Virus record (IMG/VR): IMGVR_UViG_3300005670_000019
Length of the DNA: 64,000 bases
DNA from: a virus
Taxonomy: Duplodnaviria > Caudoviricetes
Reading direction: 5' to 3' (one strand)
Both the position numbers and the translations under genes were made by a program. This document shows positions 3,322 to 54,288 of this stretch, piece by piece. Below the pieces are notes generated by a model. It did not search any database. It was not told where the DNA came from and worked only from the letters and a program-made list of their open reading frames with translations. Within the stretch, counting starts at the first letter, position 1, and every line of letters begins with the position of its first letter.

Positions 3322-3876
3322 ATGCCTTTGAAAAAGCTAAATGTTGGACAAGTTGTCTACATTCTTTCAAATAAGGCACAAGCCGTTCTCCCTGCTCTTG
3401 TCATCAAAGAACATAGAACAATCCACCTTGATGCAGAAGAAGTAACTTGGACAGTTCAATACGGACCTCCAGGGAAACAAAGAGTAATCGAGTCACACAA
3501 AGTTGATGGAGAACTCTTTGGAACTCTCGAAGAGGTTCGTGACGTAATGAACCTAAGATTTCAGGAATTCGTTCAAAGTTTGATTGAGAATGCAGCTTCT
3601 TTGCAAAATAAATGGTATCCAAAAACACCATCAGCACGAAGCCAAAATTCAACAACAGACAGGCTTGATCCAGAGGCTATGATTCAAGAGATTGAGGGCA
3701 CTTCTCCACCACAGTCTCATCCAGTTCAACGTCCGATGCCAAACCCAAAAAGGCAAAGGATTTTTGATAGAGAAGAGTTGAAACAAGCTCTTCAAGCTGA
3801 CGATGATTTTGATGGCGAGTTTGAAGAAAACGAAAAAATGAAACTAAGACCTGATGGGTCAATTGAAGTGGAGTGA
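3322..3876 (+). CDS. Hypothetical protein
   Basis: ORF track; AGGTGA RBS. Confidence 0.6.
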   Translation: MPLKKLNVGQVVYILSNKAQAVLPALVIKEHRTIHLDAEEVTWTVQYGPPGKQRVIESHKVDGELFGTLEEVRDVMNLRFQEFVQSLIENAASLQNKWYPKTPSARSQNSTTDRLDPEAMIQEIEGTSPPQSHPVQRPMPNPKRQRIFDREELKQALQADDDFDGEFEENEKMKLRPDGSIEVE

Positions 3877-21255: not shown

Positions 21256-21638
21256 TGGTGGACACGACGGGGAATTGAACCCCGTGTCCAAAAAAACCTT
21301 AGAACTTCTTTTACGTTGCCTATGTAGTTTCCGCTTTTGCTGAGGAACTTTCGTTCGACTGCCAGGAAGCTCAGCGCATCTACCAACTGTCCTGTTTTCT
21401 TTACCCAAATCTCGTTCTGTAGTTAATGGTAAAGTGGTTCACTACAAAACCAGTCTTCTAAAATGATGCAACAAGAACTACGAAGACTTCTCATGCTTGT
21501 CACACCTCTTACTCAAGCGGCAAGAGGAAGGTATGCGTTTTCTGCATTTGTTTTTGAACACAGTATTTGATTGGTTATGTTCGCCCAATACAACGTGGAT
21601 ACATTCCTTGTGTTTCTCTGTCGAAACCTGTCATGCCC
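21256..21638 (-). ncRNA. ssrA: tmRNA, tag (A)AENAYLPLAA
   Basis: 5' GGGCATG pairs with 3' CGTGTCC-A-CCA with a G3:U wobble; T-arm GGGGTTCAATTCCCC; tag frame GCA GAA AAC GCA TAC CTT CCT CTT GCC GCT TGA at 21545-21513. Confidence 0.95.
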
Positions 21639-33202: not shown

Positions 33203-33570
33203 TTACTTTCCTTTGAATTGGAGCCTTATAACACATAAAAATCGGATTTTAAACTATTTGCTTCATTTTCTGTTAGCTCTAAGAGAAAATATCTATTACC
33301 TTTAGAGCCTAGACTTTTGTATTCATCGCTAATGATGCTAATCACGGCATAATGAATTACAGTATGACCTTCAAGTCTGAACACTTTAATAGCCCTGTCG
33401 TTTTCTTTTAAATTTTCAAACGAAATAGGCTTCATTAAACTAAGCATCGATTCACATTCATCGGCTGACAACATCAACTCTTCTAACATTTTTGCAACAC
33501 TATTATCAATTTTTCTCATTTGAAAAATTCTTTTTGCAAAATTCATTTACTTTCCTTTGAATTGGAGCCT
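33199..33570. repeat. 28 bp direct repeat (33199-33226 and 33543-33570) flanking ORF 33226-33546
   Basis: TCATTTACTTTCCTTTGAATTGGAGCCT occurs twice; on the minus strand it is a tRNA 3' end, an RBS and an ATG. Confidence 0.9.
33226..33546 (-). CDS. AT-rich hypothetical protein between direct repeats
   Basis: ORF track; RBS and ATG lie within the repeat. Confidence 0.6.
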   Translation of the reverse strand: MNFAKRIFQMRKIDNSVAKMLEELMLSADECESMLSLMKPISFENLKENDRAIKVFRLEGHTVIHYAVISIISDEYKSLGSKGNRYFLLELTENEANSLKSDFYVL

Positions 33571-33588
33571 CCCACGGGATTTGAACCC
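33563..33588 (-). pseudogene. 3' half of a split Thr-like tRNA
   Basis: GGGTTCAAATCCCGT-GGGAGGC-T-CCA; acceptor strand complementary to GCCTCTC at 34217. Confidence 0.8.
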
Positions 33589-33616
33589 TTGCAAGGACTA
33601 CGTTTTCTGAATCTCT

Positions 33617-33691
33617 TGGAGCCCGCGACTGGAATCGAACCAGCTCTCTCCTTATTACAAGTAAGGTGCATGACCATTGTGCTTCGCGGGC
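33617..33691 (-). tRNA. tRNA-Thr(UGU)
   Basis: CCTTA-CT-TGT-AA-TAAGG; CCA encoded. Confidence 0.92.
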
Positions 33692-34155
33692 GCATCTTCA
33701 AAACCTTTGTTTCCTTTGCGAAATCTCTTAGAGGTTTTCTCCCCTCCTTTTCTTCCCCAATTCCGGAAATTGGGCGTTAGAGCATGGCAATTCGGACAAA
33801 GAACTCTCAGATTTTGACGCTGGTTATTTGTGTGGTCGCCATCTATATGATCGATTTCCAATATCGATCCACCACATGCTCTTGTCTTGCAAAAGCCACA
33901 TTGAGAACACTTGAACTCACTTTCTGCCAAGAGACGCTGACGTCTCTTTTCGCGACTAAGTTGTTCGAATGGAACAGTTTCCCACTTTACATCAGTCCAC
34001 TGATTGGACGCGGCGCCCCTTCTCTTGCGCATTGCTTCATAAAATGCGTCAGACTTAGGAGGTGGCTCTTTTCTATCCGGATTGCTTTTGCAGAAAGTTT
34101 GATGATATCCTATACCCCTCTTGGAGAATTCGTTGTTGCAATATTGACATTTCAT
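33655..34155 (-). CDS. HNH endonuclease; stop codon inside tRNA-Thr
   Basis: LEIDHIDGDHTNNQRQNLRVLCPNCH. Confidence 0.9.
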   Translation of the reverse strand: MKCQYCNNEFSKRGIGYHQTFCKSNPDRKEPPPKSDAFYEAMRKRRGAASNQWTDVKWETVPFEQLSREKRRQRLLAESEFKCSQCGFCKTRACGGSILEIDHIDGDHTNNQRQNLRVLCPNCHALTPNFRNWGRKGGEKTSKRFRKGNKGFEDAPAKHNGHAPYL

Positions 34156-34187
34156 GACACTAACTATGGCAGAGCAAGGATACTTCT

Positions 34188-34217
34188 ACCGTTGCTCTAC
34201 CGTTGAGCTAGAGAGGC
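34188..34217 (-). pseudogene. 5' half of a split Thr-like tRNA
   Basis: GCCTCTC-TA-GCTC-AACGGTA-GAGC-A-ACGGT, then the sequence diverges; promoter at 34235-34263. Confidence 0.8.
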
Positions 34218-35230
34218 ATTTTGTGCTATGATCAACAATAGCAAGAAACCGACGAAATTTCAAGGAAAATCATTCAGTTCTTTTTTTTGACCCAATCTTG
34301 GAACTTTCCCCAAATGAGTGGGTTATCGAGGTGCAAAGATTTGTAAATCCAAAGTCCAATAAATGGCATTGAATACCAAAAAAGAATATGATAACCCCAC
34401 AAGGAAACACTTCCAACAAGTAGAAGTGACACTGCAAGAGAAATCAAAATCAAAATTGGAATAGCAAAAAAGAAAGTAAACCCCCAAATTGATACATGCG
34501 GATTTTCAAAAAGTTCCTCAACAAGAGCCATCCAAACAAAAAGGATCGTGCGAAATACTCGAAGTGGATCAAACTTCCATTTGATTTCATTTTTTGGTGG
34601 CTTCGATGGCGTACGATATCCGCCATTTTCATTGTTGTTTGTTGTCATTGGTGTTGACCTTTCAAAACGTCATCAATCCCTTGGTGAGATAAGTTCAAAG
34701 AACCATGTAAAGACGGTTTTGATCGTATTCTTCCAATCTCTTTTTAGGTAAGTCCTAGCAACCCATGCACAGAAAAATCCTGTGATGAAGTAAGTTATCA
34801 GAGCTAAGGCAAAAGCAAAAGTCCAACTCATAATACCTTCACAAACTTTCCGCGATTGAAATCATCTAATGGACAAAAGAATCTTCCAAAGATCATTTCT
34901 TTTGAAAATGGTGCTCTTTTTTTAGTTGAGAACTTTGAGTCTGTAGTCTCCAAAATAAACAAAGAAACAGAACTCCATTCCTCCGCACCCTTTCGAACAT
35001 AAATACGATCGATTTGAAAAATCGAATCTTTTGGAAAAGTCTTGTTGAATGCGTGTTTTTGAAATGTAGGGTTGGTCCATTTTGTTGGAAATGGAACATT
35101 TTCTGCCTCAAAAAGACACATGTTGCGGTGATCAACAATGACTGAAAATGTCCAATCATCAGGATTTTTAATTTTTGTTCCAAGTTCCGGAATGAAAAAC
35201 ATAATGAACCTTTCTCAGTTGAGAGAAATT

Positions 35231-35566: not shown

Positions 35567-35642
35567 TGGTCCGACATATGGGAATCGAACCCATCTCTAA
35601 CGGCTTATAAGACCGTCCCCTCAACCAGTTGGGTTATGTCGG
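35567..35642 (-). tRNA. tRNA-Ile(UAU)
   Basis: ACGGT-CT-TAT-AA-GCCGT; CCA encoded. Confidence 0.9.
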
Positions 35643-45488: not shown

Positions 45489-46070
45489 ATTAGATGCTAC
45501 TCGAAGCTGAGTTCTGTCTCTTTTATAAAGGCTCTGTTACCGCGTTTTGTTTCAATTCGAAGAATTCTTTCTGCCTTTTCTCGCGAATGAACAAGAAAGC
45601 TAAACCTTAGCTGAGGTACATAGTTGCATTCGGTGTTTAGAAACTCGCCCTTTTCATTGACAATGACAAAAACTTTTATCTTGTTTCCCATTAGATTTTC
45701 TTTAGCTCTTTTGATCTGAATCGTTCGTGGAATCCCTCCAAATTCAAGCTTGAATTGGATTTGGTTATAAGAACTTCTACAATGTCATGAACATCCTGAG
45801 AACTTTGTGGATACAAAATTTTTGTAACAATACCTTCTGATCCTTGTTGATTTGAAACCTTGTCTCCAATTTCAAGAGAAGTCAAAAACAACAAGCGTTT
45901 TTTATGTTCTGTTAGTTCTCGTGCATCAGAATGATAGTTTTCACTCTTTTGCTTTTTTCCATCTTCCCAGGCTTTATCACCCATTTGTCGACAAACAGCA
46001 ATCTGCTCGTCAAGCTTTTCTATGAAAATTTGAAGTTTTTTATTTATTGCTTCGGAAGGCATAATCTATT

Positions 46071-46114
46071 TGGTGCTCAGGGCGGGATTCGAACCCGCAA
46101 GCCGTTTATAGGCA
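46071..46114 (-). pseudogene. 3' half of a split tRNA-Leu
   Basis: Variable arm GCC-TATAAAC-GGC, T-arm GCGGGTTCGAATCCCGC, then CCTGAGC-A-CCA. Confidence 0.88.
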
Positions 46115-46119
46115 TAAAT

Positions 46120-46206
46120 TGGTACCGAGAACAGGATTTGAACCTGCACCCACGTAAAGTGGACAACGCTCTCAACGTTGCGGGTCTGCCATTCCCCCAC
46201 CTCGGC
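46120..46206 (-). tRNA. tRNA-Leu(GAG)
   Basis: CAACG-TT-GAG-AG-CGTTG; long variable arm; CCA encoded. Confidence 0.92.
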
Positions 46207-46660
46207 ATTTTTTGTTTTTACGACCTCTCCAACCATCGGTTTGACTATGACAGTTAGGACATAGTAACCTTAGATTTGAAAGATTGTTATTTTTCCTATT
46301 TCCATCGATATGATCTAATTCCAATACTATTTTTTGATTATTCCACAAATCCAAAGAACACATTGCGCATTTATAATGCAACAATTTTTCCTTCAAAAGC
46401 CTCTTTTTTAGATTATCTGATTTGACAAAATGTTTATTTGACAAAATCTCGTCTAGAGAAATTTTATTGTGTGGAGACTTCCCAAGATTTGAACCTTTTC
46501 CCAAGAAATGGGAAATGTCAATATTCCAATTTGATATCCATTTTGTTATGGTGGTATAATTTCCACCAGATTCGTTCATATTCATCTTGAATATGACTTG
46601 TCGGAGTGACGTGGAACTTTTCACACATTCCTCAAGTTTTTCTTTTGAGAATTTCGGCAT
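46172..46660 (-). CDS. HNH endonuclease; stop codon inside tRNA-Leu
   Basis: LELDHIDGNRKNNNLSNLRLLCPNCH. Confidence 0.92.
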   Translation of the reverse strand: MPKFSKEKLEECVKSSTSLRQVIFKMNMNESGGNYTTITKWISNWNIDISHFLGKGSNLGKSPHNKISLDEILSNKHFVKSDNLKKRLLKEKLLHYKCAMCSLDLWNNQKIVLELDHIDGNRKNNNLSNLRLLCPNCHSQTDGWRGRKNKKCRGGGMADPQR

Positions 46661-46680
46661 TCCAGTTCCACCACCTGAGC
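46661..46680 (-). pseudogene. 5' part of a split tRNA-Leu
   Basis: GCTCAGG-TG-GTGGAACTGGA abuts the HNH ATG; perfect 7 bp match to CCTGAGC; promoter at 46696-46724. Confidence 0.85.
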
Positions 46681-47222
46681 GTAACTTCTATTCTCACTAT
46701 AGACGATTTCTCGTCAGATTTCAAGACGAAACAGCTAGTTTTAGCCTCTCATTGAGAGAAAGCGTACCATCATCTAAGAGTTCTTGAGTGGCAATTCGAG
46801 CTTCTCTTTCTTCGTTCCTAAAGGCTTTTTCCATTTGCCTTGGGGAGCGAGGACCATGGTCCCTTATGTAAGCTACGATTTTTTCTCTCATGTTCATTCT
46901 ACTACCCGACCCTGCCCCATACCGGGCTGATAAGACACATCCTGTGCTGGTATACGATGTTGAGGATATAGAACTTTTTCTAAGCGATATCCACCACGAC
47001 CGTTGCGTCCTTTCCAACTTTCCCAAACAACGCAAACAAGTTCATTTTCAAATGCACATTTGTCTTTCTTTATATAAAAGACATTTGTTTGAGCGGACGG
47101 AAAGGGCGCCAAAATCTTGTTGTTGACTTTACCAACAGAAATTAGTGTTCCCTTGATCCAGTTGTAATCATGGAGAAAGTAAATTGTTTTATTCAATGCC
47201 ATACTCACAACTCAATGATTTG

Positions 47223-47294
47223 TGGCTCTGGAAGGACTCGAACCTTACGAGGTGTCGCGTATGAAACGAACCTACATATCCAATGTGCAGAGCC
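47223..47294 (-). tRNA. tRNA with CAU anticodon (Met or Ile2), atypical, no CCA
   Basis: GGCTCTG/CAGAGCC acceptor; TCGT-TT-CAT-AC-GCGA. Confidence 0.65.
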
Positions 47295-47583
47295 ATGTTT
47301 TATCATGGAAATCCTAAACAACCCCAAACACACAAGATAAAGATTATCAAGATGCCTAGAAAGTTTATAAGAGAAGGAGAACCGTCGGGTGGTTCATATT
47401 TCATCGAAGGCATTGCTCTATCTTTTCTTGAAAATAGAAAGTGTTTCAATCTCTTCTTCGAGCTTTTTCTTGATTTTTTTGTCTTCGTCAGACAAACCGA
47501 CTTCGATATCCCAAGCATAAGCCCATTTGAGAATGCGTTCTATTTCTTTGGAGGTCAAAATCATATTTATTTTCTAAAAAAGA

Positions 47584-49603: not shown

Positions 49604-49980
49604 ATGGTGACGCCTCTCAACAGTATTGTTGGTTTGCGTCGGTGGATGATTTCCACGGTACATCATCATAATGACAGACTTCGCTGTCATTATCAAGCAA
49701 AGTTTTATGAAAACGAAACTTTGCGAAGTTAGTATTGCTCTTCCGCTACTCTGGCGAAGGAACCTTTTTATAAAAGCATTTTGTAGAAAGTTTTACTCTG
49801 TTGTCGAGTGCCACCTCGACAGCAATTAGTCTCTCATTCTACATGCTTCTTTTGTATGGGTTCGGCAAAGAAATTAATGCTTACGCGCTATAAACATTAG
49901 TCCCTTGCATATCTTTCCGGAGAAAGGACTCCTATCCAATTCTCAATCAAGATACCGAAAGAACTGGTTCAAAAAACAAC

Positions 49981-50050
49981 TACAAACAAAGGGAATCGAA
50001 CCCTCTTCTTCCGGATTGGAGTCCGGATGCACACCATTTGCATAGTTTGC
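49981..50050 (-). pseudogene. tRNA pseudogene (Gly- or Trp-like) with a 6 nt anticodon loop
   Basis: CCGGA-CTCCAA-TCCGG; intact T-arm; weak acceptor; no CCA. Confidence 0.6.
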
Positions 50051-50057
50051 AGCTATT

Positions 50058-50133
50058 TGGTTCAGGAGGTAGGATTCGAACCTACAACAACCAGATTCAA
50101 AGTCTGGGACTCTAACCATTGAGCTACTCCTGA
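50058..50133 (-). tRNA. tRNA-Gln(UUG)
   Basis: CCAGA-CT-TTG-AA-TCTGG; CCA encoded. Confidence 0.93.
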
Positions 50134-50552
50134 ATATTTAGATACCAATTTTGTTCTCTAGCTGTCTTTCTTTTGTGACAGTTTGAACAAAGAATCTGAC
50201 ATTTTTTAATTTCTTTTTCTATTGATTTCCATGAATATCCTTCGATGACCATTCTAGAAATATTTTGAGTTTTTGTCGAAGGATTCACATGATCAAATTC
50301 AAGAACAATCGGATCTTTTTCTCCACAATCAACACATGGATGAGTTTGTAAAAACTCAAACACTAGTTTTCTTATCAAGATTTTTCTGGTTTTATTTCTT
50401 TCCAAGAATTTGTTTCTATTATTTTCATAGAAACATTTCAAATTTTTCTTATTGCACTCTCTACAGTAGGATTGTAGGAGATTTTTCTCTTGGTTTTTCC
50501 AAGAAAAACTATTCAGGTTTTTTTCTTGTTTGCATCTTCCACATTGTTTCAT
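50124..50552 (-). CDS. HNH endonuclease; stop codon inside tRNA-Gln
   Basis: PCVDCGE...VLEFDHV...KCQILCSNCH. Confidence 0.88.
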   Translation of the reverse strand: MKQCGRCKQEKNLNSFSWKNQEKNLLQSYCRECNKKNLKCFYENNRNKFLERNKTRKILIRKLVFEFLQTHPCVDCGEKDPIVLEFDHVNPSTKTQNISRMVIEGYSWKSIEKEIKKCQILCSNCHKRKTAREQNWYLNIQE

Positions 50553-50582
50553 ATGGAAATATAGTTTTGAAAACTATAAAAT

Positions 50583-50620
50583 GTTCAAAGCCTTTTGTCT
50601 TACCATTAGACGAACCCCGA
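50583..50620 (-). pseudogene. 5' half of a decayed tRNA-Gln(UUG)
   Basis: TCGGGGT-TC-GTC-TAATGGTAA-GAC-A-AAAGG-CT-TTG-AA, then degenerate up to the HNH ATG. Confidence 0.8.
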
Positions 50621-53658: not shown

Positions 53659-53733
53659 TGGTGGGTCGCCCCGGAATCGAACCGGGCTCGGTCAGATTAA
53701 AAGTCTGGTGCATCACCTTGATGCTAACAACCC
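53659..53733 (-). tRNA. tRNA-Lys(UUU)
   Basis: CAGA-CT-TTT-AA-TCTG; CCA encoded. Confidence 0.92.
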
Positions 53734-54065
53734 AATTTTAGCAATCCTTCGTGGATTTCAGCATGACAGTTTGCACACACCAAAATACACTTATCAAGTT
53801 CTTTTTGAACTTTTTCCCAAGACATTCCCCAATTTCCAGAAATTTGGAAATCTTTTTCTTTTGGGATCAAATGGTGAAAGTGAAGAGCTTGTTTAGCACG
53901 ACTGTATCCACAAATTGAACAACAGTTTCCTTTGTATTTGTAGATTTCTTCTTCTCGAAGCCTTCTTCGTCGAGCAACAAGACAAGAATTACAAGTTTTG
54001 TTTCTGTGACCTTTTGCCCTATTTGGTGTGTAGGTTCGACCACAGTCTTCGCAAGAAACTTCCAT
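53724..54065 (-). CDS. HNH endonuclease, leaderless; stop codon inside tRNA-Lys
   Basis: CSICGY...ALHFHHL...KCILVCANCHAEIH; promoter TTGAAA-N17-CATAGT (54073-54101) ends 7 nt before ATG 54065. Confidence 0.88.
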   Translation of the reverse strand: MEVSCEDCGRTYTPNRAKGHRNKTCNSCLVARRRRLREEEIYKYKGNCCSICGYSRAKQALHFHHLIPKEKDFQISGNWGMSWEKVQKELDKCILVCANCHAEIHEGLLKLGC

Positions 54066-54108
54066 GTCAACTACTATGACACGAAACTCGGTGACTTTCA
54101 AGGAAAGT

Positions 54109-54184
54109 TGGTGGACGCGAGAAGAATCGAACTTCCCACACAGTGCTTGCAAGGCATCGTCGCCCCCTTGGTACATGCGCGCCC
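54109..54184 (-). tRNA. tRNA-Ala(UGC), second copy
   Basis: TGC-CT-TGC-AA-GCA; G3:U70; CCA encoded. Confidence 0.8.
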
Positions 54185-54210
54185 ATTTACTTACTCTAAG
54201 TAAGTGAAGT

Positions 54211-54288
54211 TGGTGGATCCCCTGGGGTTCGAACCCAGACCGTATCGGTTAAGAGCCGAGTGTGCTAGCCGTTAAACACCAGAGATCC
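54211..54288 (-). tRNA. tRNA-Lys(CUU)
   Basis: TCGG-CT-CTT-AA-CCGA; CCA encoded. Confidence 0.9.

Follow-up and report, generated by a model that had tools for sequence, protein, structure and literature searches.

Homing endonuclease genes normally spare the gene that hosts them, as they lie inside self-splicing introns or inteins, or else between genes. At 46071-46724 of the window (by which we mean the whole stretch of 64,000 nucleotides analysed here), an HNH endonuclease gene and a complete tRNA-Leu gene are instead found nested between two pieces of another tRNA-Leu gene. The question raised by this locus is how such a nesting came about, and whether it is to be read as an intron, as an accident of tRNA-array turnover or as a mobile element. 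The reading that we favour, with a probability of roughly 0.6, is an intron-less 'break and replace' homing cassette of phage tRNA arrays. The locus suggests a third way for RNA genes, whereby a tRNA gene is broken and a complete spare of the same isoacceptor is brought along.

Anatomy of the locus

The window is part of a large phage genome (~300 kb), the phage being from wastewater. An identical copy of the HNH protein is present on a contig of 299,589 bp, and runs in which the stretch occurs come from aquatic metagenomes, wastewater and bioreactor sludge. The tRNA genes of the window number 33 and, like its tmRNA gene, are all on the minus strand. Close relatives of the phage were found neither in the GenBank phage set nor in IMG/VR, a GTDB scan did not find relatives either, and word-based homologue searches with the flanking proteins of 123 and 195 aa gave nearly only self-matches. 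The locus itself is adjoined by tRNA-Ser(CGA) and tRNA-Ser(GGA). Its layout was confirmed, as every element that the first-pass annotation had placed in 46071-46724 was recovered in its place:

46696..46724, minus strand: putative sigma-70-like promoter of the former outer tRNA-Leu gene, read from the sequence and identical in the close relative L022
46661..46680, minus strand: 5′ stub of the outer tRNA-Leu, 20 nt, with the acceptor 5′ strand, U8-G9, the D-stem 5′ strand and the D-loop up to GG18-19
46172..46660, minus strand: HNH endonuclease ORF of 162 aa without a stop codon of its own, recognised by Pfam profiles and motif, directly abutting the 5′ stub
46120..46206, minus strand: inner intact tRNA-Leu(GAG), 87 nt, with encoded CCA (ARAGORN; Rfam RF00005, 45.6 bits against a gathering threshold of 29)
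46172..46206, minus strand: overlap of the HNH ORF with the inner tRNA, 35 nt, in which the stop TGA (46174-46172) is U33-G34-A35 of the inner anticodon loop
46099..46119, minus strand: junction and outer variable-arm remnant (AT-rich linker, then GCC, a 7-nt loop, GGC and TT), hypervariable
46071..46098, minus strand: 3′ piece of the outer tRNA-Leu, with the T-arm, the acceptor 3′ strand, A73 and CCA, pairing 7/7 with the stub

The promoter has a -35 box TTGAAA (46724-46719) and a -10 box TATAGT (46701-46696) separated by a spacer of 17 nt, and a leader of 15 nt lies between it and the stub of the outer tRNA; it now stands upstream of the HNH gene and the inner tRNA. The stub is unique in the window (expected 0.01), and its first 19 nt are an exact match to the 5′ ends of intact tRNA-Leu genes in IMG/VR. 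On the other side of the insert follow the variable arm (46113-46101), the T-arm (46098-46082), the acceptor 3′ strand (46081-46075) and ACCA (46074-46071) of the outer tRNA. In alignments with intact Leu(GAG) genes, the remnant made of GCC, loop and GGC-TT falls on their variable arm, and the segment 46099..46119 is shorter in L022 and in the more distant relative L026. The 3′ piece is likewise unique in the window (expected 0.00). A degenerate form of its last 28 nt with five R/Y positions was used as a query, and at least 120 metagenome stretches matched; 113 of the 120 matches listed are the 3′ ends of intact tRNA-Leu genes. Since the stub and the 3′ piece both match intact tRNA-Leu genes, they are real tRNA-Leu parts. 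Their acceptor halves pair 7/7 across ~600 nt, all in Watson-Crick pairs, for which the chance at one fixed position is ~6e-5. The matches together with this pairing bear out the earlier view that the outer pieces once made up a single tRNA-Leu. Of this outer tRNA ~23 nt are missing, namely the D-stem 3′ strand and the entire anticodon arm. Therefore, the outer gene is partly deleted as well as split, and the missing nucleotides mean that the outer tRNA cannot be restored by splicing. As to its identity, Leu(GAG) makes up 96 of the 113 intact tRNAs that have the outer 3′ half among the matches listed, and also 12 of the 12 listed that have both this half and the 5′ stub. Given this predominance of GAG, the broken gene was most probably the same isoacceptor as the inner tRNA, i.e. 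Leu(GAG). The replacement by a tRNA of the same isotype, which the first-pass annotation had proposed, can be retained on this basis and most probably extended to the anticodon. It may be noted that the inner tRNA-Leu is the sole GAG isoacceptor among the tRNAs of the window.

The HNH ORF scores 25.2 bits with PF13392 (cut-off 24.8) and 21.9 bits with PF01844 (cut-off 21.4). Its translation contains ELDHIDGN...NLSNLRLLCPNCH, which is a DH...N...CPNCH motif, and an upstream CAMC, giving two CxxC pairs; by its sequence it has the catalytic D-H, the Asn, the terminal His and the four zinc cysteines of an HNH (His-Me finger) nuclease. The homologues number 2627 at E<=1e-3, and the N-terminus K-[FY]-[ST]-K-E-x-L is kept across the HNH family. 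In one metagenome variant (L167) DH is changed to DT. A further HNH protein (P0120) has a tRNA-Leu-like tail. Inside the stub lies an SD-like GGTGG, the end of which is 7 nt upstream of the HNH ATG, so that the promoter and the GGTGG of the old tRNA gene both precede the start codon, in agreement with what had been claimed for this locus.

At its other end the ORF was said to have no stop of its own and to end at a TGA in the inner anticodon loop, and this is what we find: residues 151-162 (the last 12 codons) and the stop are encoded by the 5′ half of the inner tRNA. Members of the HNH family without an adjoining tRNA end at about ...WRGRKNK, and therefore the ORF proper ends exactly at the tRNA start. 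In 7 lineages the stop of the ORF is U33-N-N of the following tRNA-Leu, being TGA where the anticodon is GAG (window, L022, L026, L036) and TAA where it is AAG (L025, L033, L034). The fusion of HNH and tRNA-Leu with the stop at U33 is kept down to 49-59% protein identity, including in arrays without outer stubs. Other members of the family have C-terminal tails that resemble tRNA genes, on either strand. As far as can be read from these tails and fusions, this is an HNH lineage living at tRNA genes. The inner tRNA is 97.7% identical in L022 and L026, a value that we set against the 65-97% range of orthologous tRNAs in trying to date the cassette.

Recurrence of the nested layout

A very close relative (L022-L024) was found by exact-protein look-ups. 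Its flanks are 93-99% alike (six-frame), yet its HNH is only 72% identical; the stub is 3 nt shorter, and the 3′ remnant is without the 5′ half of the variable arm. In a distant syntenic relative (L026-L028), whose flanking proteins are ~40% identical, the locus lies between tRNA-Ser(CGA) and tRNA-Ser(GGA), as it does in the window and in L022. In this relative the outer tRNA extends through the 5′ strand of the anticodon stem, with the ATG overlapping the last base of the kept part, and the 3′ side retains only the distal variable arm, the T-arm and the acceptor. A third example (L036) comes from an unrelated locus with other flanking tRNAs, where a 54%-identical HNH and a different tRNA-Leu(GAG) are nested in a split tRNA-Leu; this outer tRNA has a different acceptor and is kept to position 26 and then from the anticodon-stem 3′ strand (position 39) on. 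The window also contains a case for Thr (34217-33563), in which a paralogous HNH (33655-34155), 45% identical to the HNH of the Leu cassette over the matched stretch, runs into tRNA-Thr(TGT) and stops in its anticodon loop. On either side of this pair lie tRNA parts that again pair 7/7, a 5′ part at 34217-34193 and one with T-arm, acceptor and TCCA at 33590-33563. The outer acceptor is paired 7/7 in 5 of 5 cases (window, L022, L026, L036 and Thr) though the sequences differ, and the pairs 3:70, 5:68 and one T-stem pair change on both sides between lineages (L026, L036), i.e. the changes are compensatory. The comparison supports at least three origins of the nested layout, one for the locus shared by the window, L022 and L026, one for L036 and one for the tRNA-Thr of the window. 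In L025, L033 and L034 the HNH-tRNA module is present in an array without an outer stub pair; in L034 it is squeezed between tRNA-Leu(CAG) and tRNA-Leu(AAG).

The extent of the outer remnants differs between these cases. L026 retains outer positions 1-31 and L036 retains 39 onward, the window and L022 retaining less. Therefore, the anticodon loop is the best candidate for the shared insertion point; the original insertion probably took place there, with the junction-proximal parts eroded later. The 3′ junction is similar in the window and L026 (CCA followed by A-A/G-TTT), and the insertions in these two could be one old event. The intergenic flanks of the two are no longer alignable. If the event was indeed a single old one, the outer T-arm and acceptor, with 82-90% identity and all pairs kept, would suggest selection on the 'dead' halves.

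The proposed break and replace and its alternatives

Given its recurrence in other phages and for tRNA-Thr, the layout looks like a homing element without an intron, which makes good the loss of the tRNA that it destroys. According to the break-and-replace reading, a free-standing gene for an HNH endonuclease, joined to its own tRNA-Leu(GAG) at the 5′ end of the latter, would have been inserted together with this tRNA into a resident tRNA-Leu gene that was most likely also GAG. The anticodon loop would be the probable insertion site, and the old tRNA would afterwards have eroded next to the junctions. Having lost its anticodon arm and D-stem 3′ strand, the old tRNA gene would be dead, and the passenger tRNA would take over from it, while expression of the nuclease and the new tRNA would now depend on the old promoter and, as 5′ UTR/RBS, on the stub with its GGTGG. 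The HNH would cut uninterrupted tRNA-Leu genes, the inner tRNA gene would resist its cleavage, and the element would spread by double-strand-break repair. The outer stubs and the inner tRNA would act as homology arms for swapping nuclease alleles, and probably the whole cassette, between co-infecting phages. The physical disruption of the outer target fits with immunity of the element's own allele. For the first insertion simple homologous repair is insufficient, and an illegitimate joining step is needed.

Exchange of the nuclease can be followed in the close relatives. The block in which the window and L022 diverge coincides exactly with the insert. A mosaic contig (L157) has an L022-type ORF between a window-type stub and a window-type 3′ part; its informative sites are window-type up to the last base of the stub, L022-type from the ATG to the start of the inner tRNA and window-type again from the inner T-loop, which places the switch points at the ATG and inside the inner tRNA. 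From this mosaic pattern, co-circulating phages evidently swap HNH alleles, the exchanged segment being flanked by tRNA sequences. What L157 documents is exchange of the HNH ORF between the stub and the inner tRNA only, rather than of the whole HNH-plus-tRNA unit. The HNH block is a local hot spot of exchange, and the nuclease gene marks a boundary of genetic exchange or gene conversion, as in a free-standing homing endonuclease gene. In three sludge/wastewater DNA runs the cassette is always present, and substitutions and indels are densest in the variable-arm remnant (46099-46113), as expected for a decaying piece of a dead gene.

The first-pass annotation had asked for relatives with an uninterrupted tRNA-Leu (GCTCAGG...CCTGAGC) at this locus. 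Such an HNH-free allele was looked for and none was found in ~30 contigs and the three DNA runs (contigs drop rare variants), and the contigs with the flanking genes of 58 aa, at 46721-46897, or of 123 aa that reach the site all carry the cassette. The presence/absence polymorphism of a free-standing homing endonuclease gene was therefore not seen in the contigs and runs examined. IMG/VR scans with the outer 3′ half, the inner tRNA, the tRNA-Ser(CGA) and the neighbouring tRNA-like element gave no empty allele, returning nothing or an unrelated 320-kb phage. The 120 matches listed from the JGI metagenome scan with the outer 3′ half are from unrelated organisms, none being syntenic with the window. 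The element may be fixed and no longer mobile in the lineage of the window. The homing cassette first proposed for this locus is partly supported, by recurrent nesting, same isotype, lack of a ribozyme, loss of the outer arm and exchange of HNH alleles, but no empty allele was found for it in the contigs and runs examined.

This last point is in keeping with ordinary turnover of the tRNA array, which we consider unlikely as an explanation of the locus. Here illegitimate recombination and deletion would shuffle same-isotype tRNA and HNH genes, the nesting would be accidental, the HNH would not be the breaker and there would be no mobile cassette. Plain tandem arrays of tRNA-Leu(CAG)-HNH-tRNA-Leu(AAG) do exist in L034 and L025, and the window also has a tandem of tRNA-Lys(CTT), an HNH-like ORF and tRNA-Lys(TTT). 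In L033, where the HNH is joined to a 5′ Leu stub and a 3′ remnant is absent, both partners share ATACAC, which suggests deletion by microhomology. However, no deletion in a tandem array can move the 3′ half of an upstream tRNA to the far side of the tRNA downstream of it. Nesting between perfectly matched outer halves also arose at least three times, always with this HNH family and a same-isotype inner tRNA, and the hot spot of exchange at the HNH block argues against a by-product of turnover.

A further reading, compatible with homing, takes the outer halves to be kept on purpose as a co-opted RNA element. An acceptor/T-arm minihelix with CCA, spanning ~600 nt, would set the transcript ends or stabilise the HNH-tRNA transcript, with RNase P acting at the outer G1 and 3′ trimming at ACCA. 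We regard this as doubtful. In its favour, the outer acceptor and T-stem pairs are all kept, with compensatory changes, across the window, L026 and L036, and this although the intergenic flanks of the window and L026 are unalignable and the flanking proteins only ~40% identical; moreover, the junction-proximal remnant decays and the T-arm and acceptor do not. The same covariation would result without selection, though, from independent recent insertions into the functional tRNA-Leu of each lineage. In 4 of 4 lineages folding gives the long-range helix, at pair probabilities of 0.5-1.0, which is weak evidence; folding of a transcript cut exactly at both ends favours end-to-end pairing. In the RNA run X16 there are short contigs only, on parts of the stretch, and such contigs cannot show ends, strand or splicing. 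If the minihelix is at work, maturation of the inner tRNA by RNase P would turn the HNH message into a non-stop mRNA, because the ORF has no stop of its own, and this mRNA would go to trans-translation; the phage has its own tmRNA (21256-21638). It is an improbable proposal that the outer minihelix lets RNase P and the 3′-end machinery excise 'HNH mRNA plus tRNA', and that trans-translation ties the dose of nuclease to tRNA processing. If true, the locus would be a self-regulating mobile cassette in which the tRNA halves are portable homology arms as well as RNA processing handles.

That the locus is a split or intron-containing tRNA, whose outer halves would give a working tRNA-Leu after removal of an insert of ~520 nt, is very improbable. 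With introns allowed, ARAGORN (-ps80) does call a Leu(CAA) that has a CTCAAA loop on a 5-bp A-U stem and is interrupted at position 37/38 by an intron of 522 nt, and an insertion in the anticodon region is at the classical site of tRNA introns. But in this call the D stem is weak (two G-U, one G-C, the latter its sole Watson-Crick pair), and an extra nucleotide is needed before the anticodon stem in addition to the all-A-U stem. Its supposed 5′ anticodon arm is made of HNH codons 3-7, the residues of which (K-F/Y-S/T-K-E) are conserved across the family, the supposed pairing is lost in L022 and L026, and the intact look-alikes of the outer tRNA are Leu(GAG) and not CAA. The relaxed tRNA-Leu(CAA) was rejected on these grounds, i.e. 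weak stems, HNH-coding overlap, non-conservation and GAG look-alikes. No Rfam intron family was found at E<=10 in 45500-47300, nor at E<=0.1 in L022, L026 and L036, and a group I/II ribozyme core is lacking; outside the ORF and the inner tRNA the insert has only ~35 nt. Rejoinable exons and conserved splice junctions are also lacking, as the junctions differ in the window, L022, L026 and L036. Judged from sequence, precise rejoining is ruled out by the loss of the anticodon arm and by junctions that differ from lineage to lineage. The view that no splicing intron is involved, which had been proposed from the outset, is supported by the lack of an intron ribozyme, the loss of the outer anticodon arm and these junctions.

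Integrase-mediated insertion with att duplication was rejected, as the insert consists of the HNH ORF and the tRNA only and the outer pieces are complementary halves, not repeats; the ATGCC (5 nt) that flanks the insert is too short to be meaningful as a target-site duplication.

Relation to known systems

Group I introns with homing endonuclease ORFs are found in the anticodon loops of bacterial tRNAs (mentioned in PMC2330249), e.g. in the cyanobacterial tRNA-Leu(UAA). The present locus is similar to these in that a selfish, nuclease-carrying insert lies in the anticodon region of a tRNA-Leu and the target site is destroyed by the insertion. Group I introns, however, restore the tRNA by RNA self-splicing, whereas the present insert has no ribozyme core, the tRNA has lost a part and function would be restored at the gene level by a second complete tRNA within the insert. 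In Aeromonas phage Aeh1, nrdA is reportedly split by the free-standing mobE. Splitting of protein genes by intron-less endonuclease genes is also described for 'fractured genes' with split inteins (PMC2677866). The likeness in both is an intron-less homing endonuclease gene inside a gene, with pieces on either side; but the protein pieces cooperate there by assembly or trans-splicing, whereas here the pieces of an RNA gene stay unjoined and a spare copy is supplied.

The nearest known system is T4 SegB, a free-standing enzyme in a tRNA cluster that recognises a tRNA-gene motif and drives the inheritance of itself and of neighbouring tRNA genes (PMC2330249). The locus resembles it in having a free-standing nuclease gene among phage tRNA genes, the neighbouring tRNA genes being co-converted in the case of SegB (PMC2330249; PMC13096335), which cuts the tRNA genes of SegB-less phages (PMC2330249). 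In contrast to the HNH nuclease here, SegB is a GIY-YIG enzyme, its gene lies between intact tRNA genes, splits none of them and has its own stop codon, and its absence from T2L, RB1 and RB3 is a proven empty allele. The nuclease gene of the window is welded to a tRNA and nested in a broken tRNA of the same isotype, with no empty allele known. HNH endonucleases are also known from the tRNA region of phage T5 (F-TflI/II; PMC2330249), and HNH genes are linked to long tRNA arrays of bacteria (PMC8421152). These are similar as HNH nucleases in or beside tRNA arrays that are suspected array movers (PMC2330249; PMC8421152), yet overlap of ORF and tRNA, a split host tRNA and same-isotype replacement are not reported in these two papers. 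In the open-access literature searched, we came across no account of a nuclease gene that is welded onto a replacement tRNA while lying inside a broken tRNA of the same isoacceptor. The locus is probably a variant of the free-standing homing endonucleases of phage tRNA clusters, in which the weld and the nested replacement tRNA would be the new part.

The recurrence for Leu in several lineages and for Thr in the same genome suggests that such cassettes may regularly drive the replacement of tRNA genes within the large arrays that big phages carry. A driver of this kind is topical because phage tRNAs counter tRNA-cleaving defences of the host, and SegB amplifies such loci (PMC13096335). A nuclease that swaps tRNA alleles could spread defence-resistant tRNA variants. 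The conserved overlap of the ORF into the tRNA also offers a simple possible link between tRNA maturation and nuclease expression.

A second HNH ORF and tRNA nested in a split tRNA

Another HNH ORF and tRNA nested in a split tRNA were found on the minus strand at 33563-34263 of the window, comprising:

within 33563-34263, minus: promoter of the TTGAAA type
34217-34193, minus: 5' part of the outer tRNA
34155-33655, minus: HNH paralogue (a relative of the cassette HNH)
33691-33617, minus: intact inner tRNA-Thr(TGT)
33590-33563, minus: T-arm/acceptor/TCCA piece, the 3' remnant of the outer tRNA

The stop codon of this HNH is TAA and overlaps the anticodon of tRNA-Thr(TGT), and the outer 5' part pairs with the 33590-33563 piece at 7/7 positions. 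The stretch 'AACGGTAG...TCCTTGC' flanks the insert on either side, and in the 5' stub the D-loop segment AACGGTAGA is present as a tandem repeat.

HNH-like ORFs beside other tRNA genes

HNH-like ORFs or paralogues were also identified beside tRNA-Gln, tRNA-Lys and tRNA-Ile genes:

50620-50583, minus: tRNA-Gln(TTG)-like 5' part, intact through the anticodon
50552-50124, minus: HNH-like ORF of the Gln locus (50058-50620)
49980-50051: odd tRNA, the next element after the Gln locus, not assignable by ARAGORN
54176-53724, minus: Cys-rich HNH-like ORF of 150 aa
35629-36048, plus (opposite strand): further HNH paralogue whose core is 47% identical

At the Gln locus the 5' part of the tRNA-Gln(TTG)-like sequence decays into the start of the ORF, whose stop codon TAG is formed by U8-A9-G10 of an intact tRNA-Gln(TTG); a matching 3' remnant was not seen. 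The arrangement at 53659-54288 (minus) is a plain tandem, in which an intact tRNA-Lys(CTT) is followed by the HNH-like ORF and then by tRNA-Lys(TTT); both tRNAs beside the ORF are again of the same isotype, and the stop TAG lies at positions 8-10 of tRNA-Lys(TTT). At its start the plus-strand paralogue overlaps tRNA-Ile(TAT) (35567-35642) in the region of that gene's 3' end.

Variants in related sequences

At positions 1-60 of L033, an array with an HNH-tRNA-Leu module, the 5' stub of a tRNA-Leu is joined to the HNH in such a way that the D-loop ATG (GGAATGGCA) serves as the start codon; a 3' remnant is absent. Since the junction falls within ATACAC, common to the tRNA D-arm and HNH codons 2-4, the sequence suggests that this fusion arose by microhomology deletion. 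One metagenome variant (JGI contig L167) reads EVDTIDGN in place of ELDHIDGN at codons matching about 46320-46310 of the window, whereby the first catalytic His is lost, the rest being identical to the cassette HNH; either the copy is inactivated or the change is a sequencing error. The ENA contigs L161 (at its start) and L171 (at its end) terminate in Nextera adapter sequence; the truncated HNH of 122 aa in L171 is only apparent, an assembly artefact.

Just downstream of the cassette lies:

45695-46042: ORFan of 123 aa

It is a presence/absence polymorphism: a deletion of 346-347 nt removes it from the very close relative L022-L024 and from contigs of two DNA runs, whereas others have it.

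tmRNA and a conserved tRNA-like RNA

Two further RNA features were recorded:

21256-21638: phage-encoded tmRNA, tag AENAYLPLAA
47224-47294, minus: conserved tRNA-like RNA (L022, about 3365-3445; distant syntenic relative L026, about 3636-3715)

The tmRNA bears on the proposal that non-stop HNH messages would result from RNase P processing. In the tRNA-like RNA the acceptor stem is 7 bp long and a T-arm is present, but the core is aberrant; it is missed by ARAGORN, and Rfam gives only a weak mascRNA-like match. One acceptor pair is altered on both sides between the window and L026. Where the window has ACA, L022 and L026 carry an encoded CCA.
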